Source of the DNA: a phage
Sequence record: PZ338878.1
Reading direction: 5' to 3' (one strand)
Length of the DNA stretch: 64,000 nucleotides
Notes under the pieces: model-generated
The model's input: only the letters and a program-made list of their open reading frames with translations
Databases searched by the model: none
Told to the model about the DNA's origin: nothing
In this document: positions 10,322-61,597 of the stretch, piece by piece
Position numbering within the stretch: position 1 is the first letter of the stretch
Layout: each line of letters begins with the position of its first letter
Made by a program: the position numbers and the translations under genes

Positions 10322-10333
10322 CTTTACTCCTTG

Positions 10334-13997: not shown

Positions 13998-14020
13998 AAA
14001 CCCGCTCCGGCGGGTTTTCT
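13998..14020 (+). terminator. rho-independent terminator or attenuator
   Basis: AAACCCGC-TCCG-GCGGGTTTTCTT. Confidence 0.6.
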
Positions 14021-15453: not shown

Positions 15454-16005
15454 ATGCGGATTACTGATAAGTATGTGTTCTTCTTCTCGGCAAAAGATGA
15501 ATTTAGCAACTGGTATCTATCATCTTTTATTGAACCTTTAGCTCCCAAGTATAATAATTCTATTACAAGTTCTGTTGAATTTACTTGTGTGGAACAATAT
15601 ATGATGTGGAGAAAAGCATGTTTGTTTTATGATTACAACATTGCATCTTCTATTTTAACCGGAGATCTAAGATATACAGGAGAAAAAGAACAGGCATATT
15701 ATAAGCGACTAGGTAGATTAGTTAAAGATTACGATGAAGCTACTTGGACTTCTTTACGGGAGAAGATTGTCAAGCGTGGTTTGTATCTTAAATACACACA
15801 AAATGAAGATCTCAAAAATAAACTTATCGCTTACGCAGATAAGGAGTTCGTAGAGGCAAGCCCTTATGATTCTATTTATGGTATCAAAATGGGGATGTGG
15901 GATCGTGATGTTGAAAACAAGGATCGTTGGAAAGGACAAAATCTTTTAGGAAAATGGCATACAGACCTTGCTGTTTATCTAAAAACACAATCTGATATTT
16001 CCTGA
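15454..16005 (+). CDS. NADAR-family (YbiA-like) protein
   Basis: FFFSAKDEFSNWY and EQYMMWRKA motifs; ATG directly follows upstream stop. Confidence 0.6.
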   Translation: MRITDKYVFFFSAKDEFSNWYLSSFIEPLAPKYNNSITSSVEFTCVEQYMMWRKACLFYDYNIASSILTGDLRYTGEKEQAYYKRLGRLVKDYDEATWTSLREKIVKRGLYLKYTQNEDLKNKLIAYADKEFVEASPYDSIYGIKMGMWDRDVENKDRWKGQNLLGKWHTDLAVYLKTQSDIS

Positions 16006-16224
16006 TATTTTGAAAATTTTTATTTTTATAAAAAGGGGTGTGGGTTTCATGTACGGAAATCCACCCTCTGAATAATATATCCAGAGTAAATATTATTCTG
16101 TACTCTGTTAATAAAGTATTTAATTTGTTTGTTGGACTATGGTATCTGATCTTTAAAAGACATACTATCTCTTAACTACTACTTATAACAGAACAGTAAA
16201 ATCATTTTTATAAAAAGGACAAAA

Positions 16225-16425
16225 TTATTTAAAGTTTTTACAGATTTTTGGCTACAAATTTTGAAAATGAAAAGTTCAAGTTTGGTCAAAATTATTTAAA
16301 GTTTTTGTATGTATTTCTATCCAGATTTTGAAAATGAAAACTTCAATTTTTTAAAAATTCCCCAGTTTATTTAAAGTTTTTTTGCCTTTTTCCGTAGAAA
16401 AATCAAAAATGAAAAGTTCAATTTC
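16225..16425. repeat. three tandem ~70-bp direct repeats
   Basis: TTATTTAAAGTTTTT at 16225, 16291, 16367; TTTTGAAAATGAAAAGTTCAA at 16258, 16325, 16401. Confidence 0.7.
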
Positions 16426-16444
16426 GTGTTTTTATAGGTGTGTT

Positions 16445-16557
16445 AATGAGAATCATTTTCGTTTGTAAATGAGAATCATTATCATTTAACTATGTAAGTG
16501 ATAATCATTCTCAGTAAGAGAATGAGAATCATTAGCAAATGAGAATTTTTCTCATTT
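16445..16557. promoter_or_regulatory. array of Fur-box-like hexamer repeats
   Basis: AATGAGAATCATTATCATT, GTGATAATCATTCTC, AATGAGAATCATT close to Fur consensus GATAATGATAATCATTATC. Confidence 0.45.
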
Positions 16558-16818
16558 ACAGAATAACGCGCAGGGGCGGTGTTTGTCTCGCGCTCCCGTG
16601 TCCCCTCGCCATACAATAAGAATAGCATAACCAACAACAAAAGCAAGCGATTATTTTTATCTTTACATTTCTTTACAAATTTATTTTAGACGAGCTACCG
16701 GCGATCAACCTTCCAACCAGGGCCGCCTGGTATGTTAGCCCCGCCTTTACGCCGTGGGGGTGGCGTTTCCTCTTCTGTATGTAAAACAGTATAAGCCCGA
16801 TCCCTGGGCTTGTCAATA

Positions 16819-17085
16819 TTATTTTTTGTTTTCTTGCCAGGATAGGACACCTAACCAAAAATACATGTCGCCCCGCGCCCCTGGCGGGATCTTGCTTTCC
16901 CCGCCGCCACTGCAAGCCCATAAATAACCGTCAGCGAACGGATCAAAGTGATCTATCTCTTCCACCTTATGATCGCCCAGGTTGAGAACGGTTTCAACCT
17001 TTAAGCCCGTTGCGCTTGCTACCTGGTGCACCGTGCCGCCTTGCCAGCCCAATGATTGCATGAGATGTAAAGGAGTATTTGTCAT
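16819..17085 (-). CDS. hypothetical protein (88 aa) in G+C-richer segment
   Basis: ORF; composition differs from surroundings. Confidence 0.35.
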   Translation of the reverse strand: MTNTPLHLMQSLGWQGGTVHQVASATGLKVETVLNLGDHKVEEIDHFDPFADGYLWACSGGGESKIPPGARGDMYFWLGVLSWQENKK

Positions 17086-17196
17086 GGTATCGCCCTTTCT
17101 TTGATGTGCGCCCTGGTTGGCGCGGTAGAAAGATAATAGCCGTTTCTTTTATAGATAGCAAGCAAAAAAGAAATGAAAAAAAGATTAAAAAAACGG

Positions 17197-17256
17197 TTGA
17201 CGTTCCTCACCTGGTAGCGTAGTATTCATCTTGTCGAGGGGCGGCAATAGTGCCGC
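17197..17256 (+). promoter_or_regulatory. promoter + 5'-UTR hairpin cassette
   Basis: TTGACG N17 TAGTAT; hairpin GGCGGCA-ATAG-TGCCGC. Confidence 0.6.
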
Positions 17257-17280
17257 TCATAACAGAAGAGAGAAATAATC

Positions 17281-17553
17281 ATGGCATCATATAGCGCATC
17301 AATGATCGTAATGGGTATCACTGGTAAACCTATGCGCGGTGGCGGATCTTTCGCTAACATCAACATTGACGGGCGTTTATCCCTGGACGCAGCGATCACA
17401 GTGGCACGGGAAACATTTAAAAAAGAATGTAATTTCAATAAACAAGATTATCTCGGTTTTGCTATTGAAAAAACCGCGCGCTTTGTGGATTATAAAAGCC
17501 CGAAAATGATCGACACTACACTAAAAGCGCAAGATGTAGCGTTTTTGCTTTAA
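17281..17553 (+). CDS. hypothetical protein (90 aa)
   Basis: RBS + ATG after cassette. Confidence 0.55.
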   Translation: MASYSASMIVMGITGKPMRGGGSFANINIDGRLSLDAAITVARETFKKECNFNKQDYLGFAIEKTARFVDYKSPKMIDTTLKAQDVAFLL

Positions 17554-17556
17554 GGT

Positions 17557-17618
17557 TTGACACTGAAAAATAATTGGGTAATATATACGACATAAGGCGG
17601 GGAAATGGTTTCCCCGCC
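17557..17618 (+). promoter_or_regulatory. promoter + 5'-UTR hairpin cassette
   Basis: TTGACA; hairpin GGCGGGGAAATGGTTTCCCCGCC. Confidence 0.6.
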
Positions 17619-17640
17619 AAATCAAAGAAAGGGTAATGCA

Positions 17641-18003
17641 ATGAGCAAGCAAATCAATACTATCATGTTTAATCTGGTATCTTTCCGCGATGACGTGAAA
17701 AATCTTTCGCGTGATGCAGTGGATGCACGGATCGAAAGCTATCGCACACAGATCGCAACGTTACCGCTGAAACGTGATCAACATGCCGCTAATATGATGC
17801 TTGATGCTATGATTAAAAAGATGATTCAATGTGATCTTACCCTGGCTTATGAATATGCTGGCGATCTCTTTGTAACATACAGCAAGCCCGTACCAGGCAT
17901 GAGCACCACGGAAGAATTGCATGCCTTAAATCTGCGACAAGATGCATGGGATAACATGCGCCGTGTTATGGTATGGGTAGAAAGCGGTAAAATTTACGAA
18001 TAA
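17641..18003 (+). CDS. hypothetical protein (120 aa)
   Basis: start at ATG 17641 after hairpin; track start 17605 lies inside hairpin. Confidence 0.55.
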   Translation: MSKQINTIMFNLVSFRDDVKNLSRDAVDARIESYRTQIATLPLKRDQHAANMMLDAMIKKMIQCDLTLAYEYAGDLFVTYSKPVPGMSTTEELHALNLRQDAWDNMRRVMVWVESGKIYE

Positions 18004-18009
18004 AAACGG

Positions 18010-18064
18010 TTGACATTGCACTAAAACCTGATAAGCTATCTTAAAGCGGGAATTGTTCCCGCTT
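18010..18064 (+). promoter_or_regulatory. promoter + 5'-UTR hairpin cassette
   Basis: TTGACA; hairpin AGCGGGAATTGTTCCCGCT with compensatory end pair. Confidence 0.55.
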
Positions 18065-18081
18065 ATATAGGATAAAACTTT

Positions 18082-18228
18082 ATGAAACAATATGTAATGA
18101 GTATTCATACCAAAAACGGCGCTACTGTTACGACTCCGGCACGGTTTGCACTTGTAAACCGTTGCAAGAGACTAAAACGAGAGCTAAAAAATAACCGTGC
18201 AACGGGCTTTAAACGCTGGGGAGGATAA
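18082..18228 (+). CDS. small basic protein (48 aa)
   Basis: hand-translated MKQYVMSIHTKNG...KRWGG. Confidence 0.4.
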   Translation: MKQYVMSIHTKNGATVTTPARFALVNRCKRLKRELKNNRATGFKRWGG

Positions 18229-18230
18229 TC

Positions 18231-18491
18231 TTGTTTTTTCTAAAAGTTTTTGATAATGTGATCGCTTTTGAACATGCTACAACGTTCGACCTGGCGAGAT
18301 ACGCTATCAGGTTTAAAGATAATGTTTATCCCCGTGCTGGCGGCGGTTACACTATTTTTAATCATCGCAACGCGCAACTGACTGATGTAACTAATCCAGA
18401 TCCTGGAGTGTATCGGATAGGCTGGCTACCGTCAAAAGACGCTGCAAGCATGTTTAAGGTATGTAAACTACTAACAGAAGAGGCGAACTAA
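18231..18491 (+). CDS. hypothetical protein (86 aa), TTG start
   Basis: GGAGG 6 nt upstream of TTG. Confidence 0.4.
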   Translation: MFFLKVFDNVIAFEHATTFDLARYAIRFKDNVYPRAGGGYTIFNHRNAQLTDVTNPDPGVYRIGWLPSKDAASMFKVCKLLTEEAN

Positions 18492-18492
18492 C

Positions 18493-19047
18493 ATGGGGCG
18501 TGAATATGTGATCCAGTCCTGGGTAAAGCATGATGTAAATGATCCGCGCATAATACCAGATGACATGATCGATCACATGGTAGGGTATAGCGGGGAGCAG
18601 ATAGGAAATCGAGCGGCAAAGAGCAACGGCAACACCAGGACGCGATCCGTTCGCCCTGGATGGCTGGCGAATGGTAACGCTGACATTGCAAGCGCCGCAG
18701 ATCCAAGCGATGACGCTAAAAATAATCCCTTATACAACATTGATCCGGCTTTTAAGGTATTGGAAGAGTATCCCGCTAAATTAGCCGCACTAGATAAGGC
18801 ATACGAAGAAAAGCGCATGGCCTGGACTGTATACAACACCGCTAAAATGGTGCTAGATGCAAAACTAATTAAAGCCCAGGAGAAGATCAATAAACTTGTT
18901 ACCATAGCGCAAGAGGAAGACCAGGGCGACCAGGAGGAAGAGGAAGAAATCATGCCTACTCTGGAAGAGGAAGAGATCCAGCCATACATGCCGACGGAAG
19001 AGGAAAAAAGACAAGCCTTAAAAAATTATGAAAATTGCATTGTGTAA
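18493..19047 (+). CDS. hypothetical protein with acidic C-terminus (184 aa)
   Basis: ORF, RBS. Confidence 0.5.
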   Translation: MGREYVIQSWVKHDVNDPRIIPDDMIDHMVGYSGEQIGNRAAKSNGNTRTRSVRPGWLANGNADIASAADPSDDAKNNPLYNIDPAFKVLEEYPAKLAALDKAYEEKRMAWTVYNTAKMVLDAKLIKAQEKINKLVTIAQEEDQGDQEEEEEIMPTLEEEEIQPYMPTEEEKRQALKNYENCIV

Positions 19048-19050
19048 GGG

Positions 19051-19155
19051 TTGACATATGCAAACAAGCCCCGTAATATGTACCACATAGAGCGGGGCAA
19101 CTTCTCAAAGGTGAAATAAAAAATCAGTTGACACCTGAAATCAGTAAGCTATAAT
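19051..19155 (+). promoter_or_regulatory. tandem promoters (first with degenerate hairpin)
   Basis: TTGACA at 19051 and TTGACA N16 TATAAT at 19128-19155. Confidence 0.5.
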
Positions 19156-19192
19156 GCTTATATAGATTGAAACATTACTAAGGAATAAAAGC

Positions 19193-19372
19193 ATGGCTAT
19201 TATTGCAAAAACTGAGATCGTAGGTTTAGATTCTATCCTCCTGGCATATGAGGAAGCTATAGAAATGTATGTGGTTTCCTATGGTGATTATATCCGTGAA
19301 TATAATTCTATTGATCTAGCTTTTGAATGCTATATTCGCCAGGTAAATAAAGCATACGATGATTATCGTTAA
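19193..19372 (+). CDS. small hypothetical protein (59 aa)
   Basis: hand-translated MAIIAKTEIVGLDSILLAYEEA...; RBS AAGGAA. Confidence 0.4.
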   Translation: MAIIAKTEIVGLDSILLAYEEAIEMYVVSYGDYIREYNSIDLAFECYIRQVNKAYDDYR

Positions 19373-19391
19373 AAGTTTTAGTCTTGTGCTA

Positions 19392-19421
19392 TTGACAACG
19401 AACGATAGTACAAGCATAATA
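19392..19421 (+). promoter_or_regulatory. sigma70-type promoter (no hairpin)
   Basis: TTGACA ... CATAAT. Confidence 0.45.
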
Positions 19422-19467
19422 ACTTTTATCGGGAACACTCCTAACTAATCAAAAGAGATTAAAGATT

Positions 19468-19833
19468 ATGGCTAAAAATATCAATGTTTCTGCTTATGCT
19501 ACCCTGGCTAACACTGCTAAAATTGAACTATCCAGCATTGAAGCGGTACATATTAGCGCCCGTCGCTGGTTTCAAAAGTCTTATGGTAATACTTATTTCT
19601 CTTTGATCGTTGACGTTGAGATCGGCGGTAAACTGATTGAAGTCGTTAACGTTCCGTTTCAATATGGTTATGGTGATCATTTTGATACCGTTGCCCTGGA
19701 AGAGTTTAGCAAGGTTATCAACCTGGAAGGTAAAGAGTTTTCAAATTATGCCTACCTTTCCCGTTTTTGCCGTGATAATGGGATCGCTGTATACAGTCAT
19801 GCAAGCGATGTTAAACGCAAAAAAGATTTATAA
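19468..19833 (+). CDS. hypothetical protein (121 aa)
   Basis: ORF, RBS. Confidence 0.55.
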   Translation: MAKNINVSAYATLANTAKIELSSIEAVHISARRWFQKSYGNTYFSLIVDVEIGGKLIEVVNVPFQYGYGDHFDTVALEEFSKVINLEGKEFSNYAYLSRFCRDNGIAVYSHASDVKRKKDL

Positions 19834-19838
19834 AAGTA

Positions 19839-19900
19839 TTGACAGCACGAATAAAAAGAGTAAAATGTTTCATATCAGGACGGGGGAATGGTTCCCCGCC
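19839..19900 (+). promoter_or_regulatory. promoter + 5'-UTR hairpin cassette
   Basis: TTGACA N16 TAAAAT; hairpin CGGGGGAATGGTTCCCCG. Confidence 0.6.
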
Positions 19901-19919
19901 TATAACTAGGTATAATAAA

Positions 19920-20150
19920 ATGGCTAATATGTATATGACCGAAGTTAAAACCGTAAAAGATACTACTACCAATAAAACTACTTACTTACAGCGGATCTGC
20001 GGTGTATGGCAACGTATTAGTAAAGCAAAGTATTATAAATTAACATCATATGCTAATCGTTCGGATTCATTCCGTACTGAAATAAAAGGTAATAAAGTAC
20101 ACCAATACGGCACTTATTATTATTATAGCCTAGACGCGATTGCAATCTAA
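19920..20150 (+). CDS. hypothetical protein (76 aa)
   Basis: start at ATG 19920 after hairpin. Confidence 0.5.
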   Translation: MANMYMTEVKTVKDTTTNKTTYLQRICGVWQRISKAKYYKLTSYANRSDSFRTEIKGNKVHQYGTYYYYSLDAIAI

Positions 20151-20169
20151 GCATATTTTTAAAAAGCAC

Positions 20170-20230
20170 TTGCAAACTAGGTTTAAAGGCGTATAATGTT
20201 TTGCATAGAGAGCGGGAATAGTTCCCGCCT
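20170..20230 (+). promoter_or_regulatory. promoter + 5'-UTR hairpin cassette
   Basis: TTGCAA N16 TATAAT; hairpin AGCGGGAATAGTTCCCGC. Confidence 0.6.
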
Positions 20231-20252
20231 CACTGAAAAAGAGATTAACATC

Positions 20253-20492
20253 ATGGCTAAATCTAAAATGTACAACGGTCACAAAAACAAAACTCATTGG
20301 AATGTAAGCCTTTGGATTAATAACGATCCAGGTTTTTATAATATGGCAAAAGAATTTATAGCCGTGAACAACAATAAAGATAACGCCGCGCGTGAAATGA
20401 TGGCACTACTTAACGAAATGGGCCAAAATACTACGCCAGATGGCTATAAATTCAGTAAAACCAGTATCCGCGCCGCTATGGTAGGAATGTAA
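20253..20492 (+). CDS. hypothetical protein (79 aa)
   Basis: start at ATG 20253. Confidence 0.5.
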   Translation: MAKSKMYNGHKNKTHWNVSLWINNDPGFYNMAKEFIAVNNNKDNAAREMMALLNEMGQNTTPDGYKFSKTSIRAAMVGM

Positions 20493-20501
20493 TAAAAACA
20501 G

Positions 20502-20561
20502 TTGACAACGTTTTTTAATCTGATAAGATGTATCACATAGGGCGGGAAATGGTTTCCCGCC
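20502..20561 (+). promoter_or_regulatory. promoter + 5'-UTR hairpin cassette (consensus copy)
   Basis: TTGACA...CTGATAAG...CACATAGGGCGGGAAATGGTTTCCCGCC. Confidence 0.65.
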
Positions 20562-20583
20562 AAATCAAAGAAAGGTTAACATT

Positions 20584-20811
20584 ATGGCTATCGTTATTGT
20601 TCGCGTATCCGGAACGGTTGGAATCTCCCAGGTAGTAGCAGTTATCACAGAAAAGAAAGGGGATGATCTTCACTCCTCCTTGAATAGCTGGGCGGTCGCT
20701 AACTTTGGGCAATGGTCGAGCGTTGAGTACATCGAATCCTACCAGGTGCCAACGATTAGCCTAACCGATCTAAATGTTGATCGCTTGTTGTGCCTGGATC
20801 AATTAAACTAA
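20584..20811 (+). CDS. hypothetical protein (75 aa)
   Basis: RBS AAAGG + ATG. Confidence 0.5.
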   Translation: MAIVIVRVSGTVGISQVVAVITEKKGDDLHSSLNSWAVANFGQWSSVEYIESYQVPTISLTDLNVDRLLCLDQLN

Positions 20812-20819
20812 AAATAATA

Positions 20820-20877
20820 TTGACAAGATAACTAAAATCAGTAAAATGTAATGCATAGGGCGGCAATAGTGCCGCCC
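20820..20877 (+). promoter_or_regulatory. promoter + 5'-UTR hairpin cassette
   Basis: TTGACA N16 TAAAAT; hairpin GGGCGGCAATAGTGCCGCCC (compensatory G/C swap). Confidence 0.6.
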
Positions 20878-20898
20878 CTAGTGAGAGAGATTATCAAA

Positions 20899-21114
20899 AT
20901 GGCTAATATCCGCACACTGTTAAAAAATGCAAGTCAAGTTTTATTTTCAGATGACGAGTATTTCAACAAAGACATTACAGGCGTGAAAAATTTAAAAGAC
21001 GTGAAGGATGTTATCGGTATCCGTGGATCTTTACGTAAAGGTGACATATACGGTAACAAGGTGCAATATAAATTGTCAAAAGATTATGATTTTACTTTGA
21101 CAATTATTTCATAA
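20899..21114 (+). CDS. hypothetical protein (71 aa)
   Basis: start at ATG 20899; track start lies in hairpin. Confidence 0.5.
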   Translation: MANIRTLLKNASQVLFSDDEYFNKDITGVKNLKDVKDVIGIRGSLRKGDIYGNKVQYKLSKDYDFTLTIIS

Positions 21115-21120
21115 AACTAC

Positions 21121-21181
21121 TTGCAAACCTGGTAAAATAAAGTAAACTATATTCATTAAGGCGGTGGAATAGCCCACCGCC
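21121..21181 (+). promoter_or_regulatory. promoter + 5'-UTR hairpin cassette
   Basis: TTGCAA ... TAAACT; hairpin GGCGGTGG-AATAGC-CCACCGCC. Confidence 0.55.
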
Positions 21182-21204
21182 TAACAAAGAGAAGAGGAAA
21201 CATC

Positions 21205-21375
21205 ATGATCACTTTCGCCACCCGTGAAGCCGCTCGCAACGTTGCACGTAAAGTTAACGCCGCCAACCTGGGCGCTACGCTTAAAGCCCCGGTAAAAGAT
21301 GAATCAGGAAAATGGATCTTTCCTGGTCTGCGTCACGCTGATAAGCTGGGAACATTAACGTTAAAAAACAAATAA
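21205..21375 (+). CDS. small hypothetical protein (56 aa)
   Basis: hand-translated MITFATREAARNVARKVNAANLG...; RBS AGAGGAAA. Confidence 0.45.
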   Translation: MITFATREAARNVARKVNAANLGATLKAPVKDESGKWIFPGLRHADKLGTLTLKNK

Positions 21376-21381
21376 TATCCG

Positions 21382-21440
21382 TTGACAGTAGCATCATTTA
21401 TAAGTAAAGTAACAACAACGGCGGGAAATGGTTTCCCGCC
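21382..21440 (+). promoter_or_regulatory. promoter + 5'-UTR hairpin cassette
   Basis: TTGACA ... TAAAGT; GGCGGGAAATGGTTTCCCGCC. Confidence 0.65.
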
Positions 21441-21460
21441 ATCAATAAAGAGATAAGATT

Positions 21461-21820
21461 ATGAAATCAGTAAAAGCAATTAAAACTTACATTGTGTCGG
21501 CTATTTCTTTTGATGGTACTACAACCGAAAAAGAAAAGATCACCGAACTGATGCGCCGTTTTAACTCTGAATACTGGTATCCCGATAATCAAAAACGTTA
21601 CAATCATAACATGACCAAGGCGATAGCCTCATGGTTACAAGGTTTACCGTCAGAAGTCAATATTGCTTTTGATTATAATGAGATCGATCACTTGTTAATT
21701 GAATGGAAGTGCATAAAAGAAACAAGCAAAGAAACAACCGTTACCCGTGAGCGGGAAAATTATTGGTTATATATTGCAAGCATGATCGTAATCCTGGCAA
21801 AACAGCATAACGTGGCGTAA
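21461..21820 (+). CDS. hypothetical protein (119 aa)
   Basis: ORF, RBS. Confidence 0.55.
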   Translation: MKSVKAIKTYIVSAISFDGTTTEKEKITELMRRFNSEYWYPDNQKRYNHNMTKAIASWLQGLPSEVNIAFDYNEIDHLLIEWKCIKETSKETTVTRERENYWLYIASMIVILAKQHNVA

Positions 21821-21834
21821 TTAAGAGGAAAAAC

Positions 21835-21972
21835 ATGAACGCATCACAGCAGATCGAAAAATTCAACCGCAGCAAGGCGCGTAAAAATTGGAACGAAGAG
21901 ATCACCAAAAAAGGCGATAAGCGGAACAAAACAAAAAGAGATCGCAGTACAAAAAGACACTGGAACGAATAA
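21835..21972 (+). CDS. small highly basic protein (45 aa)
   Basis: hand-translated MNASQQIEKFNRSKARKNWNEEITKKGDKRNKTKRDRSTKRHWNE; RBS AGAGGAAAAAC. Confidence 0.4.
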   Translation: MNASQQIEKFNRSKARKNWNEEITKKGDKRNKTKRDRSTKRHWNE

Positions 21973-21977
21973 CAAAA

Positions 21978-21996
21978 AGGGCGCAATAAGCGCCCT
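21978..21996 (+). terminator. rho-independent terminator
   Basis: GGGCGC-AATAA-GCGCCC + TTTTA. Confidence 0.6.
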
Positions 21997-22090
21997 TTTA
22001 GCTTATATAGAGGCTTGTTACCCATAGGCAATGGTAACGCCAGGGCAAGCCTATAAATCAACGTTAGACAGCTTTACAGGAGCTTTAAAA

Positions 22091-22273
22091 ATGAAATTAA
22101 ACGAAATAAGCAAGGCACTAGCCCAGGGTCAAAGGTTATGCGCCCGATATCGTGATCAATATGGCTTCATGACTAGCGGCGTGATCCTGGGGATTGAAGG
22201 TAATAAAATTTTTATTGACACGTTGAAAAACGTTGTATATAGTGACAATATAATCTCAATAAAACATATATGA
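22091..22273 (+). CDS. hypothetical protein (60 aa)
   Basis: start at ATG 22091. Confidence 0.45.
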   Translation: MKLNEISKALAQGQRLCARYRDQYGFMTSGVILGIEGNKIFIDTLKNVVYSDNIISIKHI

Positions 22274-22281
22274 GGCAAGAA

Positions 22282-22683
22282 ATGAAAAAATTATTGATCG
22301 CTGGTTTAATCTCTTTTGGCATGGTTGGAACATCTAGCGCGGCGATATCCTCCACAGTAGCAGAATTAAGCGCCGTTGATGCAATGGAAAACGTCATGAT
22401 CATTAATAACGCGATCCCCGATGAAATCATGGAGGATTCTCACATGATCGCTTATGGTGCTGTTACACAATTAACGGCAAAAATAGATAAATCTATTGTT
22501 AATGGCTTAAATGAAGATGTACCATGTGAAATTATTACCAGTGTGCTAACGACTCAAAATTTTACGCCGTGGCTAAAAAGTATTCAAAAGGTACACAGCA
22601 CCGCCGCAGATCGTAGCAATGAAAAACTAGTGTCAGCACTTGCAACGTATACCCTAGCAAAATGCACCGAAATAAAAGATTGA
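22282..22683 (+). CDS. putative secreted/periplasmic protein (133 aa)
   Basis: signal-peptide-like MKKLLIAGLISFGMVGTSSAA. Confidence 0.5.
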   Translation: MKKLLIAGLISFGMVGTSSAAISSTVAELSAVDAMENVMIINNAIPDEIMEDSHMIAYGAVTQLTAKIDKSIVNGLNEDVPCEIITSVLTTQNFTPWLKSIQKVHSTAADRSNEKLVSALATYTLAKCTEIKD

Positions 22684-22706
22684 CAACATAGAAAGCACGT
22701 TATAAG
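22680..22706 (+). promoter_or_regulatory. sigma70-type promoter (no hairpin)
   Basis: TTGACA N15 TATAAG. Confidence 0.45.
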
Positions 22707-22730
22707 ATACACACAACAAAGGAGAACTAC

Positions 22731-23033
22731 ATGAACGGCATAGCTAAAACGTTTTTTCTTTTTTCTGGTGTAAATGATCCATCAATAAAAGTCGATAGCG
22801 TAAAAGAAAACAATACTATCACCGCTAAATTGTTTCAAGATGAAACAAATAACGTGCTAATCATTAATCTTAAAGAAATAACGAAAGGTTATTATACTAT
22901 TGCTTACCATGCGATCTATCATGCTGGTACTAGCGAGGAAGTGCAAACAAGCAACAACGAAAGCGCGGCGCTACCTGGTGATCTGGTGCTGGGCGTTATC
23001 AGTTTAATTGTCAATGATTTTTTTAAGGAGTAA
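22731..23033 (+). CDS. hypothetical protein (100 aa)
   Basis: RBS AAAGGAGAA. Confidence 0.5.
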   Translation: MNGIAKTFFLFSGVNDPSIKVDSVKENNTITAKLFQDETNNVLIINLKEITKGYYTIAYHAIYHAGTSEEVQTSNNESAALPGDLVLGVISLIVNDFFKE

Positions 23034-23037
23034 AACC

Positions 23038-23133
23038 ATGCCCTATTTACATTTATTTTTCGGGATCTTATTGTCAGGATCTTTTTTCTTCTGTATACTT
23101 GTTTCTATTGTAAACCACGTTTTAAGACATTAA
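23038..23133 (+). CDS. small hydrophobic peptide (31 aa)
   Basis: AAGGAG 7 nt upstream; MPYLHLFFGILLSGSFFFCILVSIV. Confidence 0.35.
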   Translation: MPYLHLFFGILLSGSFFFCILVSIVNHVLRH

Positions 23134-23142
23134 GGAAACAGC

Positions 23143-23262
23143 ATGAAAATTATTCCCGTACAGTATAGCGTAATAAATCCAGCATATGAGGAAGGAAGGA
23201 AAACAAGCATGGCTTTATGTTGTATTACTACTATAGCCATGTTATTATATATTGTGTTTTAA
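23143..23262 (+). CDS. small peptide with hydrophobic C-terminus (39 aa)
   Basis: RBS AAGGAAA; hand-translated. Confidence 0.3.
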   Translation: MKIIPVQYSVINPAYEEGRKTSMALCCITTIAMLLYIVF

Positions 23263-23362
23263 TAGGTTTTATAGTTGTACGCTTTAAAGGCTTTACAATT
23301 TTTTGTTATGCTTTAAAATATATCTTGAAAACGGCAAAGGCCGCAAACAAAAGGGTAAAATT

Positions 23363-23686
23363 ATGAAATCTGTGATCGGTGTTTATTTGGATAACTCTGA
23401 TTTTTTCTATCATCGTGCGCGTTTCCTTGATGCGATTGAAATGATAGAATCAGGCTTTAAAGAGTATCGCCTTGCACATGATGACCTGGAAGCATTACAG
23501 GGTAATAGTGTTTTTACATTGCAAGCTAAAGCACTATGCAAAAGCCGGATCGACATTGCAAGCAAAAAGATAGAACGCGGCATGTCCTGGTTGCGCACCG
23601 CAGAAATCAACATGGGGCAATGGTACGGCGAAAACTTAGAAAATAAACTCACTTTTGTAAATGTAGAAAATATTAAAGATTATTGA
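23363..23686 (+). CDS. hypothetical protein (107 aa)
   Basis: start at ATG 23363. Confidence 0.5.
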   Translation: MKSVIGVYLDNSDFFYHRARFLDAIEMIESGFKEYRLAHDDLEALQGNSVFTLQAKALCKSRIDIASKKIERGMSWLRTAEINMGQWYGENLENKLTFVNVENIKDY

Positions 23687-23749
23687 TTGACAGCACACCT
23701 GATAAGTAATATATTGTATCTCATAGAGCGGGGAAATGGTTTCCCCGCC
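23687..23749 (+). promoter_or_regulatory. promoter + 5'-UTR hairpin cassette
   Basis: TTGACA ... CTGATAAG TAATAT ... GCGGGGAAATGGTTTCCCCGC. Confidence 0.65.
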
Positions 23750-23768
23750 TTAACAGAAGAGATAAGAT

Positions 23769-24053
23769 ATGAAAATCACAAAAGCACTTTTCAACTATGC
23801 AGCACGTCGCGGATTATGCTTATCCGTTGAAAATTTAGGAAAAGAAGATTTTTTGTGCTTTTGGGAGCTTGAGAATGATAATGAGTGGATCTTCTCTTAT
23901 TCTATCTGCAAAGATCAAAACGGTTGCTTGTTAACCTGGCGCGGTAATATCTATTTGCCGGAAGAAATAAAACAAGAATTACCAGGCACGATCATGACTG
24001 AGAAACAGCTTAAGGAAGTGATCAATTTTGTAGGGCAAAACATTAAAAAATAA
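23769..24053 (+). CDS. hypothetical protein (94 aa)
   Basis: ORF, RBS. Confidence 0.55.
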   Translation: MKITKALFNYAARRGLCLSVENLGKEDFLCFWELENDNEWIFSYSICKDQNGCLLTWRGNIYLPEEIKQELPGTIMTEKQLKEVINFVGQNIKK

Positions 24054-24054
24054 T

Positions 24055-24114
24055 TTGACAGTAGGCAAACAACGTAGTAAAGTTTATCACATAGGGCGGG
24101 AAATGGTTTCCCGC
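24055..24114 (+). promoter_or_regulatory. promoter + 5'-UTR hairpin cassette
   Basis: TTGACA N17 TAAAGT; GGGCGGGAAATGGTTTCCCGCT. Confidence 0.65.
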
Positions 24115-24137
24115 TCACAGCAGAAGAGAAACAAATC

Positions 24138-24308
24138 ATGATCCCGACTATGTTTTACGTATCGCGCAAAGGTCACAATATTTTTTGGTCTGAAGATTTA
24201 AATGAAGCCATGACGTTTGCCCGTGATCGTGTTGCTATCGGTGGCGTTAATATTACCGTAACCGATGAAAACGGCATTGAATACTATAACGGCGACGATG
24301 AAGAGTAA
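24138..24308 (+). CDS. small hypothetical protein (56 aa)
   Basis: hand-translated MIPTMFYVSRKGHNIFWSEDLNEAMTFA... Confidence 0.45.
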   Translation: MIPTMFYVSRKGHNIFWSEDLNEAMTFARDRVAIGGVNITVTDENGIEYYNGDDEE

Positions 24309-24316
24309 TTAATAAG

Positions 24317-24337
24317 GCGGGGGGAGTATTCCCCGCC
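24317..24337 (+). promoter_or_regulatory. 5'-UTR hairpin (no own -35 seen)
   Basis: GGCGGGG-GGAGTATT-CCCCGCC. Confidence 0.45.
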
Positions 24338-24366
24338 ATCAATTCACAACTAAAAGAGAAATCATC

Positions 24367-24561
24367 ATGGCGCTTAAAAAACTAACAAGCAATACTCGTT
24401 GGGATGAAATTGACGGGGAAGTATACATTTTCGCCCGTAAACCAGGTGATCAAAAATGGTCAAAGGCTTTTACTTGTCACCCTGCAACAATAGATCTAAT
24501 AAAAAGTAAAGGTTTACGTGAAGCAGTAGCGAGAAGTTTACTGATCCCTTGTAAAAAATAG
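24367..24561 (+). CDS. hypothetical protein (64 aa)
   Basis: ORF, RBS. Confidence 0.5.
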   Translation: MALKKLTSNTRWDEIDGEVYIFARKPGDQKWSKAFTCHPATIDLIKSKGLREAVARSLLIPCKK

Positions 24562-24562
24562 T

Positions 24563-24622
24563 TTGACAATATGCGGTTATCTGGTAATATATACCACGTA
24601 GGGCGGGAAATGGTTTCCCGCC
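24563..24622 (+). promoter_or_regulatory. promoter + 5'-UTR hairpin cassette
   Basis: TTGACA N16 TAATAT; GGGCGGGAAATGGTTTCCCGCC. Confidence 0.65.
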
Positions 24623-24640
24623 AGAATAGAGAGAACTAAA

Positions 24641-24745
24641 ATGATTATTCTTACCATGATGTGCGCGGCGGTTATTATTCCTTTGATAACGCTTATTGTT
24701 TCTGAGATCGATGATCTTCTCTTTGAAAGAAGTTTAAAAAAGTGA
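24641..24745 (+). CDS. small membrane peptide (34 aa)
   Basis: MIILTMMCAAVIIPLITLIVSEIDDLLFERSLKK. Confidence 0.4.
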   Translation: MIILTMMCAAVIIPLITLIVSEIDDLLFERSLKK

Positions 24746-24808
24746 TTGACAACGGCTAATAAGCTGATAATATGTATCACATAGGGCGGGGCAATAAGGC
24801 AACGCCCA
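24746..24808 (+). promoter_or_regulatory. promoter + degenerate hairpin cassette
   Basis: TTGACA ... CTGATAATATG ... ATAGGGCGGGGCAATAAGGCAACGCCC. Confidence 0.5.
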
Positions 24809-24825
24809 CTAATGAGGGTAGCATC

Positions 24826-24930
24826 ATGTTAGAGAAAATTTTCACGGTTGTAATAGTGGGCCTGGCGTTATCGGTTGGAGTGATTGCAACTATGGCTAAC
24901 ATGATTCTATCTTCCCACGGTATCGGCTAA
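24826..24930 (+). CDS. small membrane peptide (34 aa)
   Basis: MLEKIFTVVIVGLALSVGVIATMANMILSSHGIG. Confidence 0.4.
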   Translation: MLEKIFTVVIVGLALSVGVIATMANMILSSHGIG

Positions 24931-24931
24931 G

Positions 24932-25156
24932 GTGAAACAAGTGATCACGAATAAGACAGGTAAAACAGAATTTTTACGTAACTTGCAGATCGGCAAGCCT
25001 GAGATCTGGTATTGCACTAAAACACCACGTGACGAAATGAAAGATTTTACCGCTACTTTACAACGTGTTAAAATATCTATCACACAGAAAAAAGCCTTGA
25101 TAGTTGCAGAAAACGAGATCCCGCAAACTATTATCATTGTTGAGCGTACAGCATGA
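24932..25156 (+). CDS. hypothetical protein (74 aa), GTG start
   Basis: ORF from track; weak RBS. Confidence 0.35.
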   Translation: MKQVITNKTGKTEFLRNLQIGKPEIWYCTKTPRDEMKDFTATLQRVKISITQKKALIVAENEIPQTIIIVERTA

Positions 25157-25539
25157 AAACAGAAAACATTAACGAAATGATCAACGGCTATAAAGAAGCC
25201 TTTATTTTTGCCGAACCAGCGACGGATCACAATGGGGAATATATTGAGAATCTAGACGATTATGATTTTTCTTCTAGCGCCCTGGAACGTATTACCAGCG
25301 ATGTGACCGCCTTTTGTAGTGCCAATGTTGCCGCTATCTCTGAGGCAATGAGCGACGGCGCTACAGCAAACCAGATCGGGAATGATTTACATTTCACCCG
25401 CAACGGGCACGGCGTAGGCTTTTGGGATCGCCCTGAAATATACACCACTAACACGGCGAACCGCCTAACAAATGCCGCTAAATTAATGCCATCGGTGCAT
25501 GCTTACATTGGTGAAGATAATTTGATTTATATTGAATAA
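25153..25539 (+). CDS. hypothetical protein (128 aa)
   Basis: ORF overlapping upstream by 4 nt. Confidence 0.5.
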   Translation: MKTENINEMINGYKEAFIFAEPATDHNGEYIENLDDYDFSSSALERITSDVTAFCSANVAAISEAMSDGATANQIGNDLHFTRNGHGVGFWDRPEIYTTNTANRLTNAAKLMPSVHAYIGEDNLIYIE

Positions 25540-25545
25540 AAAGTA

Positions 25546-25604
25546 TTGACACCGATCCCCAATATGGTATTATTTACCACGTAGGCGGGAAATGGTTTCC
25601 CGCC
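25546..25604 (+). promoter_or_regulatory. promoter + 5'-UTR hairpin cassette
   Basis: TTGACA N16 TATTAT; GGCGGGAAATGGTTTCCCGCC. Confidence 0.65.
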
Positions 25605-25627
25605 AGGTAATCAAAAAGGTAAATACT

Positions 25628-26017
25628 ATGCGCAACCTGGTTTCTGTTTCTAACGTTGAAAAATTCCAATCCTTGCAGGGTATCGTTAACAACGTAGCGC
25701 CTTTTTTAGTCAATGGCTTGATTGCAAAGATGAAGAATAAGCATCATGCGGCATGGTCTGCTTACTGCTTTGATAATGATGAAAAAGCGGCTGAAATGAT
25801 GTTAGATATGCTGTTAGACAGTGTTGAATCATCTTTACCGGAAAACATCGCAGAAGAGATCACCTATCGTTATAATATGGCGATCACTTACCAGGAGGTT
25901 GCGCAATTTAATATGATGGACGATGACGAACAACAGGATCAAGAAATGTTTTGGGAGTATGCTGATCGTCAATCGGCTTTTGATGAAAAATTAGCGATGT
26001 ATTATAACGAATATTAA
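25628..26017 (+). CDS. hypothetical acidic protein (129 aa)
   Basis: start at ATG 25628. Confidence 0.5.
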   Translation: MRNLVSVSNVEKFQSLQGIVNNVAPFLVNGLIAKMKNKHHAAWSAYCFDNDEKAAEMMLDMLLDSVESSLPENIAEEITYRYNMAITYQEVAQFNMMDDDEQQDQEMFWEYADRQSAFDEKLAMYYNEY

Positions 26018-26033
26018 TACACGGTAAAAGAAA

Positions 26034-26052
26034 GGGGCGCACTAAGCGCCCT
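26034..26052 (+). terminator. rho-independent terminator
   Basis: GGGGCGC-ACTAA-GCGCCCC + TTTTTT. Confidence 0.7.
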
Positions 26053-26479
26053 TTTTTGTATTCTTTTTTCACGATGGAAACAACACGTAAAGAATAGGCG
26101 TAAAGGTGGCGTAAAACCAGCTAAAACCGATTGTAACCGTTTAAACAAGGTAGGGATGATTAATCACCTTACCAGGATGAAAAAGCCGTTATAAAGCTAT
26201 TTAGAGCGTTTAAAGCACACAGGAAATAATTTGCTTTTTATCTTGCCTTTTATTCTGCTTTTGATTATTATTATGGAACGGGCGGCACCTGGGGACAGGG
26301 GAAGATAATCACCGGACGACCCCGCTATATATTGATAGCTAATAACTATCAAACAACAAAACATCAAAGGAATAAACTATCAAATCTTTACAATTCTACC
26401 TATTGACCGATAAATCATAACAGTTTAATATTGTTTTTAGAGGGTAGAACATACCCAAAACGAAAACAGGAAAAAGAAG

Positions 26480-26716
26480 ATGAAAGAAGTCATGATCCTC
26501 AAAAAATCACCTATTTTACGTGGTGGCTTTATCGCTTACTCTGATGATCTGTTAATTGCAACGGTTGCAAAAATACTAAAATCAGAAGAGGATAGTAAAA
26601 ACGGCGTTTATCGTATCTGTTTCACCCGTGGAAAATTACAAGGCAAGATCGCTTATGCTTTTGATTTACAAGATGTAAATGATAAAATCTGCGCTGTTAT
26701 TGATTATGCAAAATAA
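26480..26716 (+). CDS. hypothetical protein (78 aa)
   Basis: RBS AGGAAAAAGAAG. Confidence 0.5.
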   Translation: MKEVMILKKSPILRGGFIAYSDDLLIATVAKILKSEEDSKNGVYRICFTRGKLQGKIAYAFDLQDVNDKICAVIDYAK

Positions 26717-26728
26717 TTAACTTTCTTA

Positions 26729-26760
26729 TTGACACCGGATCACGCTTACATTATTATTTA
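26729..26760 (+). promoter_or_regulatory. sigma70-type promoter (hairpin absent or degenerate)
   Basis: TTGACA ... TATTAT. Confidence 0.45.
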
Positions 26761-26803
26761 TCACGTAGGGCAAATCATTTTAAACGGTAAACGAGGAAAC
26801 ACC

Positions 26804-27187
26804 ATGAGCAATATCATCAACCTGGCGGCTACTGTAAACGGCAAAGACTTTAACGGCGCTGTAGACCGTGATCCTATGTGGTGCTTATCAGTGTTCAAAG
26901 GTGACTTGGTTGAAGTTAGAACAACCGAAGGTTATAGCGACGATTATAAATGCGAGATCCATTTACATAACTGGTACACGGGTAAAACTTATGCGCTGAA
27001 TCACGCGTTTATCGGGAAAATTGAATATCGCGAAATGATCGACGAAGAAACGGGGCAAGATTTTAGCGATTATGTTTATATTCGTTCCGAAACATTAGCC
27101 GAACGGTTGATCGAGAAAATGAAAGCAAAAAATAAAATTAATTTAGCTCATTGGCTTGATATAACAAACGATCCAGCTTATAAGTAA
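26804..27187 (+). CDS. hypothetical protein (127 aa)
   Basis: start at ATG 26804 with GAGGAAA RBS. Confidence 0.5.
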   Translation: MSNIINLAATVNGKDFNGAVDRDPMWCLSVFKGDLVEVRTTEGYSDDYKCEIHLHNWYTGKTYALNHAFIGKIEYREMIDEETGQDFSDYVYIRSETLAERLIEKMKAKNKINLAHWLDITNDPAYK

Positions 27188-27202
27188 ATAACATTTCACA
27201 CC

Positions 27203-27221
27203 AGGGCGCACAAAGCGCCCT
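27203..27221 (+). terminator. rho-independent terminator closing the small-gene array
   Basis: AGGGCGC-ACAAA-GCGCCCT + TTCTTTTT. Confidence 0.7.
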
Positions 27222-27433
27222 TTCTTTTTACCTAAATAAAGATGATAGCTTTTACCTATCAAAAACGTTCACCGAAAAAAGTGAATAGATCGCGGTATCG
27301 AGCTAATCAAGGAGCAGATGAACAACCATACCATGAAGATCATAAGGCGTTTACAACGTGTTTTAGACCGCTTATTTTTAATTTCTCCATGTAACTATCT
27401 GGCAAAAACAGCCTTTTTCTTGTCTTTCCTCTT

Positions 27434-27508
27434 AAATGATAATCATTCTTATTTATAGCTGATTATTTATGCAATAAACTGCATAATGCAATAATGATAA
27501 TCATTCTT
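27434..27508. promoter_or_regulatory. two Fur-box-like sites
   Basis: AAATGATAATCATTCTT and AATAATGATAATCATTCTT. Confidence 0.4.
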
Positions 27509-27517
27509 AACTTATGA

Positions 27518-27800
27518 CCATCTAACCTATAAAATAATAAGCTATCTAACTAAATTAAAACTAATTATCTCACCTTTATTTATAATTTACTGTTATTATC
27601 TCATTGATAACCTTATATTAAACAACAATAACTAATATAAATCATTACTAAGCTAAATATAATCTATCTAACCTTTAAAACTATAACTATAATCTATCGA
27701 ATTGTTGCACAAAGTAACTATTAAATTGTTAGTAACATTACTAAATAATTAATATCCTATCTATTTATGATCTAATCTTTACCTTACTATCTATTACCTA
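27518..27800. repeat. iteron-like short repeats in AT-rich non-coding DNA
   Basis: recurrent CTATCTAAC(C/T) / CTATCTATT motifs. Confidence 0.4.
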
Positions 27801-27859
27801 AATAATCATTTCATACCGTAATAATTTCATATAATAATTATAACAAGAAATATAATTAG

Positions 27860-28045
27860 CAAGCGTATCATTAGCAGCCTATGCCGGACACATAGGCGGC
27901 TAATAATAACGCAACTACACACCTCACATAATAACTATCACCGATAGTTATTATCTGTGCTTATGTAGCTTGCAACAATTGCAAGCGCAACAATATACAT
28001 GGTATATTGTATTCCCTTACATTGTTGCGGTGCGTTATTATTAGC
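27860..28045. repeat. cluster of nested palindromes
   Basis: GCCTATG-N7-CATAGGC; ATAACTATC-ACC-GATAGTTAT; GCTTGCAA-CAA-TTGCAAGC; CAATATAC-ATG-GTATATTG; flanking GCTAATAATAACGCA inverted repeats. Confidence 0.6.
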
Positions 28046-28420: not shown

Positions 28421-28439
28421 GCAAATGATAATCATTATC
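28421..28439. promoter_or_regulatory. near-consensus Fur box
   Basis: GCAAATGATAATCATTATC vs consensus GATAATGATAATCATTATC. Confidence 0.5.
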
Positions 28440-61089: not shown

Positions 61090-61500
61090 TTAGAATTCAG
61101 AATCATCATCTCGTGATGGATCATGTTCATTTCCGAAGTCTTCCATTTTGATATGAGAGCTACCCCAACCTGTAAAATCTTCTTCTCCAAAGTGCAAAAT
61201 ATCTACACCTTGATAGATTCGCTTATATTTATAGTCTTGTCGAACTGGGAAAGTATACAATGTAGTATTTGCAAACACCACACGTCGATTGTTGTTACTA
61301 CGAATATTAACACCACGTTCTACTGTATAATGTCCATCGGTAGACATACCAAGCATTACTAATGCTGCTCGCAATGTGGTGTTATGATACTCGTGAGGAA
61401 TTTTTCCTCCGTGCTTTTTAGCCATTTCTTTCCAGATCGGTGTAGCCTTAATGGTAGACATACTTACGGTCGCCCAAATGGTTGTATTAATTAGTGACAT
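61090..61500 (-). CDS. hypothetical protein (136 aa)
   Basis: ORF. Confidence 0.5.
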   Translation of the reverse strand: MSLINTTIWATVSMSTIKATPIWKEMAKKHGGKIPHEYHNTTLRAALVMLGMSTDGHYTVERGVNIRSNNNRRVVFANTTLYTFPVRQDYKYKRIYQGVDILHFGEEDFTGWGSSHIKMEDFGNEHDPSRDDDSEF

Positions 61501-61597
61501 AAATTCTCCTTCTCTCTTTTAAGGAGAGCATAGCTCTCCTAACGTTAGCCTATACTACACGAATCTCAATTAAAAGTCAACTATAATTTTAAGTTGA

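Follow-up and report, generated by a model that had tools for sequence, protein, structure and literature searches.

The closest described relative of the element discussed here is the PeSL of T4-like phages, known from RB49/phi1, T4/PST and KVP40/nt-1, in which the stop codon of the preceding gene, itself in an A/T-rich stretch, is followed by a strong sigma70-like promoter, a G/C stem-loop, a Shine-Dalgarno (SD) sequence and a start codon (PMC2839356, PMC4122927). PeSLs cluster in front of ORFans, in hyperplastic regions, and are tied to insertions and deletions between close relatives; the roles proposed for them are transcription termination or attenuation and modular shuffling, also via encapsidated mini-circles (PMC2839356, PMC4122927). 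Here we describe an array of promoter-hairpin cassettes in a stretch of phage DNA of 64,000 nucleotides (nt) (record PZ338878.1, referred to as the window). A preliminary description had not recognized the cassette as a described element, but it matches the PeSL class (PMC2839356, PMC4122927). The cassette is a PeSL-like element of the phi92/phAPEC8/rV5 supergroup: the concept is known, and the lineage and geometry differ. The family is real, robust and widely conserved, and the hairpin may have a function at the RNA level.

The cassettes share with PeSLs a strong sigma70-like promoter, an A/T-rich upstream region holding the upstream stop codon, and a stable stem-loop that is integral to the repeated motif. 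Like PeSLs, they occur in many copies in an ORFan-rich block of ~10 kb, which lies at 17.2-25.6 kb in the 64-kb window and is the only such block in a genome of 146 kb, and they sit at insertions, deletions and replacements between close relatives. Unlike PeSLs, they belong to the Stephanstirmvirinae/Vequintavirinae lineage and not to T4-type phages. In RB49/phi1 PeSLs the stem-loop mostly falls between the promoter hexamers or overlaps them, and in PST it precedes the promoter (PMC2839356, PMC4122927); a stem-loop downstream of the -10 is one of five RB49 PeSL subclasses (PMC2839356). In contrast to most PeSLs, the hairpin here has a fixed site inside the 5′ untranslated region (UTR), past the -10. 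It also belongs to a single family with a GGCGG/CCGCC core and has no U-tract, and the terminator role of PeSL stem-loops appears unlikely here. In the literature searched, the term PeSL was used only for T4-like phages, and nothing was found for phi92-, phAPEC8- or rV5-like phages. A blastn search with the cassette gave no detectable match among T4-like phages.

Other systems offer partial parallels. The hairpin in the ompA 5′ UTR reportedly stabilizes its mRNA in E. coli, as described by Emory, Bouvet and Belasco in 1992. The cassette hairpin resembles it in being a stable stem near the predicted 5′ end, in conserving structure over sequence and in leaving the downstream ribosome-binding site accessible; it differs in that the 5′ end is only predicted, that 3-6 unpaired nt are perhaps too many, and that it is multi-copy and also intercistronic. 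The palindromes known as repetitive extragenic palindromes and bacterial interspersed mosaic elements (REP/BIME) are said, from the 1987 work of Newbury et al., to stabilize the upstream mRNA segment at malE-malF. They too are repeated GC-rich palindromes without a U-tract between co-transcribed genes, plausible as 3′-exonuclease barriers and recombination substrates, but REPs are chromosomal, ~35 nt long, imperfect, linked to RAYT transposases and not coupled to promoters. The RNase III sites of the T7 early region are structured RNA between early genes that define and stabilize single messages. The likeness lies in structured RNA that separates the early genes on a polycistronic transcript made by the host polymerase; the stems here, in contrast, are 8-10 bp, too short for RNase III, and there is a promoter per unit. 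Srd of T4 stimulates RNase E. A Srd-like protein is mentioned in the rV5 paper, but a rationale for protective hairpins built on Srd was rejected, as a tblastn search of the window and of a complete near-identical genome with rV5 gp011 gave no homologue. Finally, in promoter-coupled terminators the terminator stops ~10 bp short of the next start, and its sequence also serves as promoter elements (10.64898/2026.08.19.745784). A stem-loop and a promoter are likewise fused between tandem genes in that case (Fletcher et al., 2026), whereas the hairpin here is downstream of the start and without a U-tract.

Architecture and distribution of the cassettes

Between positions 17000 and 27000 the window is 95-97% identical by megablast to the ~147-kb E. 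coli myoviruses alia, KKE7M, ESCO32, VEcB and muut. Judged by its sequence, the phage is a Justusliebigvirus of the phi92-like group, subfamily Stephanstirmvirinae, and not T4-like. Among the repeats that a repeat finder detected in the window, the cassette family dominates, and the 21-mer GGCGGGAAATGGTTTCCCGCC has five copies on the plus strand at no more than one mismatch, against 0.00 expected. Sequence reading together with a promoter/hairpin scan gave 13 complete cassettes within 17197-25630, the -35 elements of which start, on the plus strand, at 17197, 17557, 18010, 19839, 20170, 20502, 20820, 21121, 21382, 23687, 24055, 24563 and 25546. Beyond this set there are an internal-loop variant (24746), a promoter-less hairpin (24311-24334), decayed copies at 19051 and 26729, and a weak copy at 26403, so that the earlier count of at least 14 was about right. 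The statement that nearly every small gene has its own cassette is overstated, since ~20 promoters and 14-15 hairpins serve ~29 genes; several runs of two to five genes have no internal cassettes and one promoter each. The region had also been called visibly G+C-richer than its flanks, where the difference is only marginal (0.37-0.41 vs. 0.34-0.39).

The order of parts in each unit is as the preliminary description gave it: an upstream stop codon in an A-rich stretch, a near-consensus sigma70 promoter, ~11 nt, the hairpin, a leader and the ATG of a small gene. The ~11-nt spacer has the consensus gTAtCACrTAG and should contain the transcription start. The hairpin has a GC-rich stem of 8-10 bp, and the leader is ~20 nt long, unstructured and purine-rich with a weak SD. 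Geometry and covariation were studied on 146 hairpins, from the window and the loci of 11 relatives (12 loci), which comprise 48 distinct sequences. A recognizable promoter precedes ~137 of the 146 copies. TTGACA is present in 113 of 128, with a spacer of 16-17 nt and a -10 of the form TAnnnT, and an independent promoter scan agrees. The motif CTGATAAG, earlier listed as often preceding the -10, is in fact an extended -10 (TGn + TAAGAT), found in 43 of the 128 copies. Measured from the end of the -10, the first paired base stands most often 11 nt away, a sharp peak (69/128) in a range of mostly 7-14 nt; hairpin and ATG are mostly 17-24 nt apart. In predicted 5′ UTR folds, the hairpin begins 0-7 nt from the assumed 5′ end. 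With a mode of 11 nt past the -10, the hairpin does lie at or near the predicted mRNA 5′ end, as had been proposed. If initiation occurs 6-8 nt past the -10, at either of the two CA steps of gTAtCACaTAG, transcripts would begin 3-6 nt before the stem.

The hairpin is also found on its own. At the orthologous site directly 3′ of a 56-aa gene, the promoter is absent in seven of the seven loci that have the site and the hairpin is kept; the stems there differ between genera in a compensated manner (GGCGGGGGGAGTATTCCCCGCC, GGCGGGGAATACTTCCCGCC, GGCGGGATTAATCCCGCC). On the minus strand, an unrelated stem at 61580 stands in the same layout. The promoter-less site and the unrelated stem both suggest that the structure is useful in itself, also between cistrons.

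A covariance model, run unfiltered over both strands of the window, found the family only at 17235-25608. In a complete 146-kb genome of 96% identity, the family is confined to the homologous block plus one family-like outlier. This outlier lies at ~75013 (+) and reads TTGACT-16-TATAGT, ATAAGACATAG, AGCGGAGGA-TTG-TCCTCCGC. By blastn, an 89-nt cassette query matches at least 133 phage records at 504 places. The records are essentially all Phapecoctavirus, Justusliebigvirus and their Klebsiella, Serratia, Citrobacter and Shigella relatives, plus two rV5-like Vequintaviruses. The proteins encoded downstream of cassettes fall, in 10 of 10 cases tested, into PHROG families without known function. 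It should be noted that four Campylobacter phage records, A150/C3/A145/A110a (MG065639, MG065656, MG065645, MG065689), are 95-97% identical to this coliphage group; they give C. jejuni as host, are flagged UNVERIFIED and are unannotated, and the host label looks doubtful. A cassette-like sequence at 544-609 of MT119359.1 (Enterococcus phage heks, 39.7 kb; 88% over 65 nt) lies at one end of the record and is likely contamination or a chimeric assembly.

The individual units, with some neighboring features, are as follows:

17197..17283 (+): cassette 1; promoter TTGACG-17-TAGTAT; hairpin GGGCGGCA-ATAG-TGCCGCTC with one G.U pair; ATG 17281 of a 90-aa gene; z -2.98
17557..17643 (+): cassette 2; TTGACA-16-TAATAT; 10-bp hairpin GGCGGGGAAA-TGG-TTTCCCCGCC; likely start ATG 17641; loop ATG 17605 in frame
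18010..18084 (+): cassette 3; TTGACA-16-TAAGCT with TGn; hairpin AAGCGGGAA-TTG-TTCCCGCTT, with A-U instead of outer G-C pairs; drives a three-gene run, 18082-19047
19051..19105 (+): decayed cassette; promoter, CACATAG and left arm alone (AGCGGGGCAA); a short hairpin is kept in relatives
19128 (+): perfect-consensus promoter without hairpin, downstream of the decayed cassette 19051
19839..19922 (+): cassette 4; TTGACA-16-TAAAAT; bulged-A hairpin AGG-A-CGGGGGA / UUCCCCG-CCU; ATG 19920
20170..20255 (+): cassette 5; TTGCAA-16-TATAAT; hairpin GAG-A-GCGGGAA-TAG-TTCCCGC-CTC; ATG 20253
20502..20586 (+): cassette 6, canonical; TTGACA-16-TGnTAAGAT; GTATCACATAG; hairpin GGCGGGAAA-TGG-TTTCCCGCC; ATG 20584; 47.8 bits with the covariance model
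20820..20901 (+): cassette 7; hairpin GGGCGGCA-ATAG-TGCCGCCC, with C-G where the canonical copy has G-C; ATG 20899
21121..21207 (+): cassette 8; TTGCAA-16-TAAACT; hairpin GGCGGTGG(G)-AATAG-(C)CCACCGCC; ATG 21205; z -5.23
21382..21463 (+): cassette 9; canonical hairpin; ATG 21461; two-gene run up to the terminator 21975-21999
21975..21999 (+): intrinsic terminator; GGGCGC-AATAA-GCGCCC + TTTT
23687..23771 (+): cassette 10; hairpin (AG-A-)GCGGGGAAA-TGG-TTTCCCCGC(-CT); ATG 23769
24055..24140 (+): cassette 11; hairpin GGGCGGGAAA-TGG-TTTCCCGCTC with one G.U pair; ATG 24138
24311..24369 (+): promoter-less hairpin GGCGGGGG-GAGUAU-UCCCCGCC, directly 3′ of the stop codon of the 24138 gene; leader; ATG 24367
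24563..24643 (+): cassette 12; canonical hairpin; ATG 24641 of a 34-aa gene
24746..24828 (+): cassette 13, the variant; promoter, CACATAG and GGGCG-GG-GC..GC-AA-CGCCC, an internal-loop hairpin conserved in relatives; likely start ATG 24826
25546..25630 (+): cassette 14; canonical hairpin; likely start ATG 25628; gene up to the terminator 26031-26055
26729..26807 (+): cassette remnant; promoter and CACGTAGGGC, hairpin deleted; the orthologous site in ESCO13 still has the hairpin
61498..61580 (-): same layout with an unrelated stem; TTGACT-17-TAGTAT, 11 nt, AGGAGAGC-TAT-GCTCTCCT, purine-rich leader, ATG

The arrangement has consequences for gene calling. Callers of open reading frames (ORFs) had been said to be misled by ATGs inside the loop, which is so at 17605 and 25592, where the loop ATG is in frame; at 20851 the ATG is in the spacer, not the loop. 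Further mis-called starts are 24772 and 20196. In general, in-frame ATGs in the loop, spacer or -10 lengthen ORFs beyond the SD-supported starts 17641, 20253, 20899, 24826 and 25628. The public record alia_125 (426 nt; 10264-10689 of the alia locus) starts at the loop ATG of the 25592 gene. Many cassette-driven genes open with ATGGCTA(A/T) (Met-Ala), as at 19193, 19468, 19920, 20253, 20584 and 20899. The conserved unit may extend into the first codons, for translation efficiency or for extra recombination homology.

A covarying hairpin without a U-tract

Behind 14 of the 20 promoters in the region there is a fold of -13 kcal/mol or below; of 48-nt windows drawn at random from the same genome, 3.5% have one (binomial ~1e-16). 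The hairpins have stabilities of -13 to -19 kcal/mol, and the predicted 5′ UTR folds have z values of -2.0 to -5.2 across the cassettes. In nearly all of these folds, the purine-rich SD and the AUG are unpaired.

For the analysis of covariation, a plain MAFFT alignment mis-registered the stems, and a covariance-model alignment would mix strands, the palindromic stems giving minus-strand matches of up to 20.7 bits. A register-defined, N-padded alignment was used instead. Its register was set by the outer GCGG/CCGC core, which was imposed by the search pattern, so the invariance of the core is no evidence. The unconstrained inner stem is 94.9% paired among the 48 distinct hairpins. The first inner pair is G-C in 32, C-G in 11 and U-A in one; the second is A-U in 30, G-C in 12 and G.U in four; and the third is A-U in 27, G-C in four and G.U in four. 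The covariation score is 0.220 vs. 0.122 in shuffles, with 0 of 500 column shuffles reaching the observed value, and pairing falls to 41-67% when partner columns are slid as a control. In the window itself, the stem of cassette 8 has three inner pairs altered, each with compensation. The compensatory changes first seen in the window are thus borne out, and the covariation holds with the copies from all 12 loci aligned.

The stems are otherwise variable. Different stems are found at orthologous sites; neither the length nor the inner sequence of the stem is fixed, and the loops vary in sequence and length (UGG, AUAG, AAUAGC, GAGUAU, CAC and UUAA). The core-to-core spacing (GCGG/CCGC) is 6, 8, 9, 10, 11, 12 or 13 nt among the 48 variants. 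With covarying stems and a core spacing of 6-13 nt that misfits a dimeric DNA-binding site, the proposal of selection on structure, rather than on a fixed binding sequence, stands. On the transcribed strand G.U exceeds A.C by 23 to 10, in copies that are related and not independent; the bias would modestly support structure at the RNA level. Rfam gave no match at gathering thresholds in the whole window, and at E ≤ 1 one chance-level match in the region. A candidate structured RNA at 21998-22092 was not significant (z -1.2).

The hairpins lack the other mark of intrinsic terminators. After each of 14 hairpins the longest T run is 1, with 0-3 T in the next 9 nt. The true terminators at 21975-21999, 26031-26055 and 27200-27224 have T4-T6 tails and form their own conserved family (AAAAGGGCGC-AATAA-GCGCCCTTTT), and an independent terminator scan of the plus strand flagged T-tailed terminators only and no cassette hairpin. 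By U-tract criteria, the reading of the hairpins as intrinsic (rho-independent) terminators was rejected, and the cassette hairpin is probably not a terminator. Transcription of the array would be expected to stop at the 21975, 26031 and 27200 terminators. Elsewhere in the window there are other terminator pairs with repeat-family sequence, distinct from the cassette hairpins, at 13998/39797 and 40548/51834.

Gene exchange at the cassettes

The best-supported property of the cassettes, which the preliminary description had missed, is where they stand when related genomes are compared. Positions 16000-28000 of the window were aligned with four close relatives, and the internal ends of high-scoring segment pairs in collinear blocks were taken as breakpoints. 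Of these ends, 36 of 44 (19 of 25 distinct positions) are within 15 nt of a cassette, many of them inside it. Particular differences between genomes show the same pattern. Compared nucleotide by nucleotide, alia has, after the promoter-less hairpin, an extra 270-nt gene, then a full promoter-hairpin cassette and then the orthologue of the 24367 gene; relative to alia, the window has lost one module, its first hairpin being joined to the second leader. From the -35 region of cassette 17197 to that of cassette 18010, muut lacks two modules. The exchange reaches FV3 (Vequintavirinae), a protein of which is 98% identical to the 24367 product, within a block of 90-94% nucleotide identity that is bounded by the -35 elements of the upstream and the downstream cassette. 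Another FV3 block, also present in KKE7M, is 469 nt long at 97% identity and starts exactly at a promoter. On these comparisons, the cassettes coincide with the seams of gene-module exchange, also across subfamilies.

Some features at the borders of the array deserve mention. Two to three tandem AT-rich, non-coding repeats of 67-75 nt occupy 16204-16424, just upstream of the divergent promoter region that opens the array, and carry only the label 'repeat_region' in the records of alia and muut. They resemble iterons and may form an origin or a regulatory array. Fur-box-like palindromes are found on both sides of the array, at 16442-16536, 27490-27508 and 28421-28439. There are six matches at no more than three mismatches, against 0.06 expected, to the Fur-box consensus GATAATGATAATCATTATC; the palindromes may confer iron-responsive control or be the site of another protein. 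Lastly, ~340 nt between the terminator 26031 and the promoter 26403 (26060-26400) hold no convincing ORF.

Possible roles of the hairpin

Among the options first raised for the hairpin (a stabilizing stem-loop, a shared operator or a processing signal), the sequence weakly favors a stabilizer or insulator. We lean towards a composite explanation, in which a PeSL-like cassette for early-gene expression and exchange carries a hairpin that acts as a 5′ and intercistronic stabilizer-insulator. Our confidence in its parts differs, being high for the cassette and its exchange and roughly even for stabilization and insulation. Host RNA polymerase would start 3-6 nt upstream of the hairpin, and every primary transcript would therefore open with a stable stem-loop. 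The hairpins have no U-tract; transcription would therefore read through to the few true terminators and give nested polycistronic early RNAs. In such RNAs, a hairpin would stand before each cistron and be a 3′-exonuclease barrier for the upstream segment. The hairpins would also shield primary and cleaved 5′ ends against 5′-end-dependent RNase E/RppH, and cleavage in the AU-rich promoter-derived RNA would leave a hairpin at the 5′ end of the downstream segment. In addition, they would keep the leader and its weak SD from pairing with upstream RNA. For exchange, the ~60-85 nt of shared sequence would supply the homology for module recombination.

Several points weigh against this explanation. 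From work on ompA, protection by a 5′ hairpin is said to have a limit of 2-4 unpaired nt, and the predicted 5′ segment of 3-6 unpaired nt is at or beyond that limit. Searches of the literature on the phi92-like group found no data on transcription starts, RNA ends or half-lives, only papers that give numbers of promoters and terminators. Related copies enter the covariation counts, and the symmetry of a palindrome can be restored without selection on RNA, through gene conversion or template-switch repair. A purely structural role does not account for the conservation of the CAYRTAG spacer or for loops that often begin with AAU(R)G. At 19051 and 26729 the gene remains although its hairpin is gone, so the hairpin is not essential. 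As to exchange, intergenic breakpoints are partly expected, since selection purges breaks inside genes, and the cassettes fill most of the intergenic space. Finally, the PeSL211/210 stem-loop of RB49/phi1 cut lacZ expression in a reporter as rrnB T1 did (PMC2839356).

That reporter result supports the classical account of PeSLs, by which the stem-loop attenuates or terminates transcription and insulates the gene from upstream promoters, so that expression depends chiefly on the gene's own promoter. The high G+C content and the stability of the hairpins fit this account, and in the ASO2A record each hairpin is labeled 'rho-independent terminator predicted by WebGeSTer', ~10 nt past an annotated promoter, and sometimes called by TransTermHP as well. 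The absence of a U-tract at any of the 14 hairpins, the terminator scan and the use of canonical terminators at the array ends all speak against it. Moreover, an efficient terminator is unlikely because the hairpin follows the start of its own promoter and would abort its own transcript, ~25-30 nt after initiation. We consider this account improbable. No more probable is a palindrome without RNA function, a recombination site or selfish repeat that spreads with modules and by gene conversion, its symmetry being repaired by template switching. The breakpoints at cassettes, the modules common to subfamilies, the many identical copies per genome and the genes without a hairpin would all follow from it. 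It does not sit well with the fixed distances to the -10 and the ATG across divergent genera, with the G.U bias on the transcribed strand, with different stems kept at orthologous sites over long divergence, or with an unrelated stem in the same geometry, and the promoter alone would give homology.

Other explanations have the hairpin, or its DNA, read by a protein. A shared RNA operator, by which a phage or host RNA-binding protein or endoribonuclease reads the hairpin with its flank or loop and co-regulates the early genes (for example, in a shut-off at the early-to-middle switch, like T4 RegA/RegB), would account for the near-invariant GGCGG/CCGCC core, the conserved CAYRTAG 5′ of the stem and the frequent AAU(R)G loop start. 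The retention of the hairpin at the promoter-less site and its position, 5-10 nt upstream of the SD, would also suit a translational operator. We nevertheless doubt it: the loop varies, as does the stem in length and inner sequence, the geometry recurs with an unrelated stem at 61580, part of the core invariance is imposed by the search pattern, and no candidate binding protein was identified. The more specific proposal, that hairpin and CAYRTAG flank form a lineage-specific RNA operator read by a phage factor, be it an RNA-binding protein or a nuclease, is in our estimate likewise unlikely. If true, more than a dozen separately promoted early genes would form one post-transcriptional regulon, acquired cassette modules would join it automatically, and the same element would also be a docking site for gene exchange across subfamilies. 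Far less credible is an operator in double-stranded DNA, where a dimeric repressor on a palindrome centered near +16, placed like lac O1, would block the early promoters. The palindrome is directly past strong promoters and has invariant outer half-sites (GGCGG/CCGCC), but a dimeric site is unlikely because the core spacing varies and the inner pairs covary: half-sites 6-13 nt apart led us to reject this reading, inner covariation is not needed by double-stranded DNA, and G.T mismatches are tolerated. Equally remote is an antitermination or pause element, a nut boxB- or put-like RNA that modifies RNA polymerase. An RNA hairpin near the start of early transcripts would be its signature, but there are at least 14 copies per 10 kb for only three terminators, the loops are variable, there is no Rfam similarity, and the hairpin also occurs without a promoter.

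In closing, we return to the composite of PeSL-like cassette and stabilizer-insulator hairpin and to what the cassettes mean for these phages. Public annotation needs correcting where hairpins carry 'terminator' labels and where start codons are placed inside the hairpin loop or the promoter. The uniform cassette is a clean system in which to study the effect of a promoter-proximal hairpin on early mRNAs and how short repeats steer modular exchange. As compact, strong and self-contained expression units, the cassettes may be open to reuse in phage engineering. At least 133 sequenced genomes carry the family, and many of these belong to phage-therapy candidates. With this family, the PeSL principle, that cassettes express accessory genes and act as shuffling seams, reaches a second large group of virulent coliphages.

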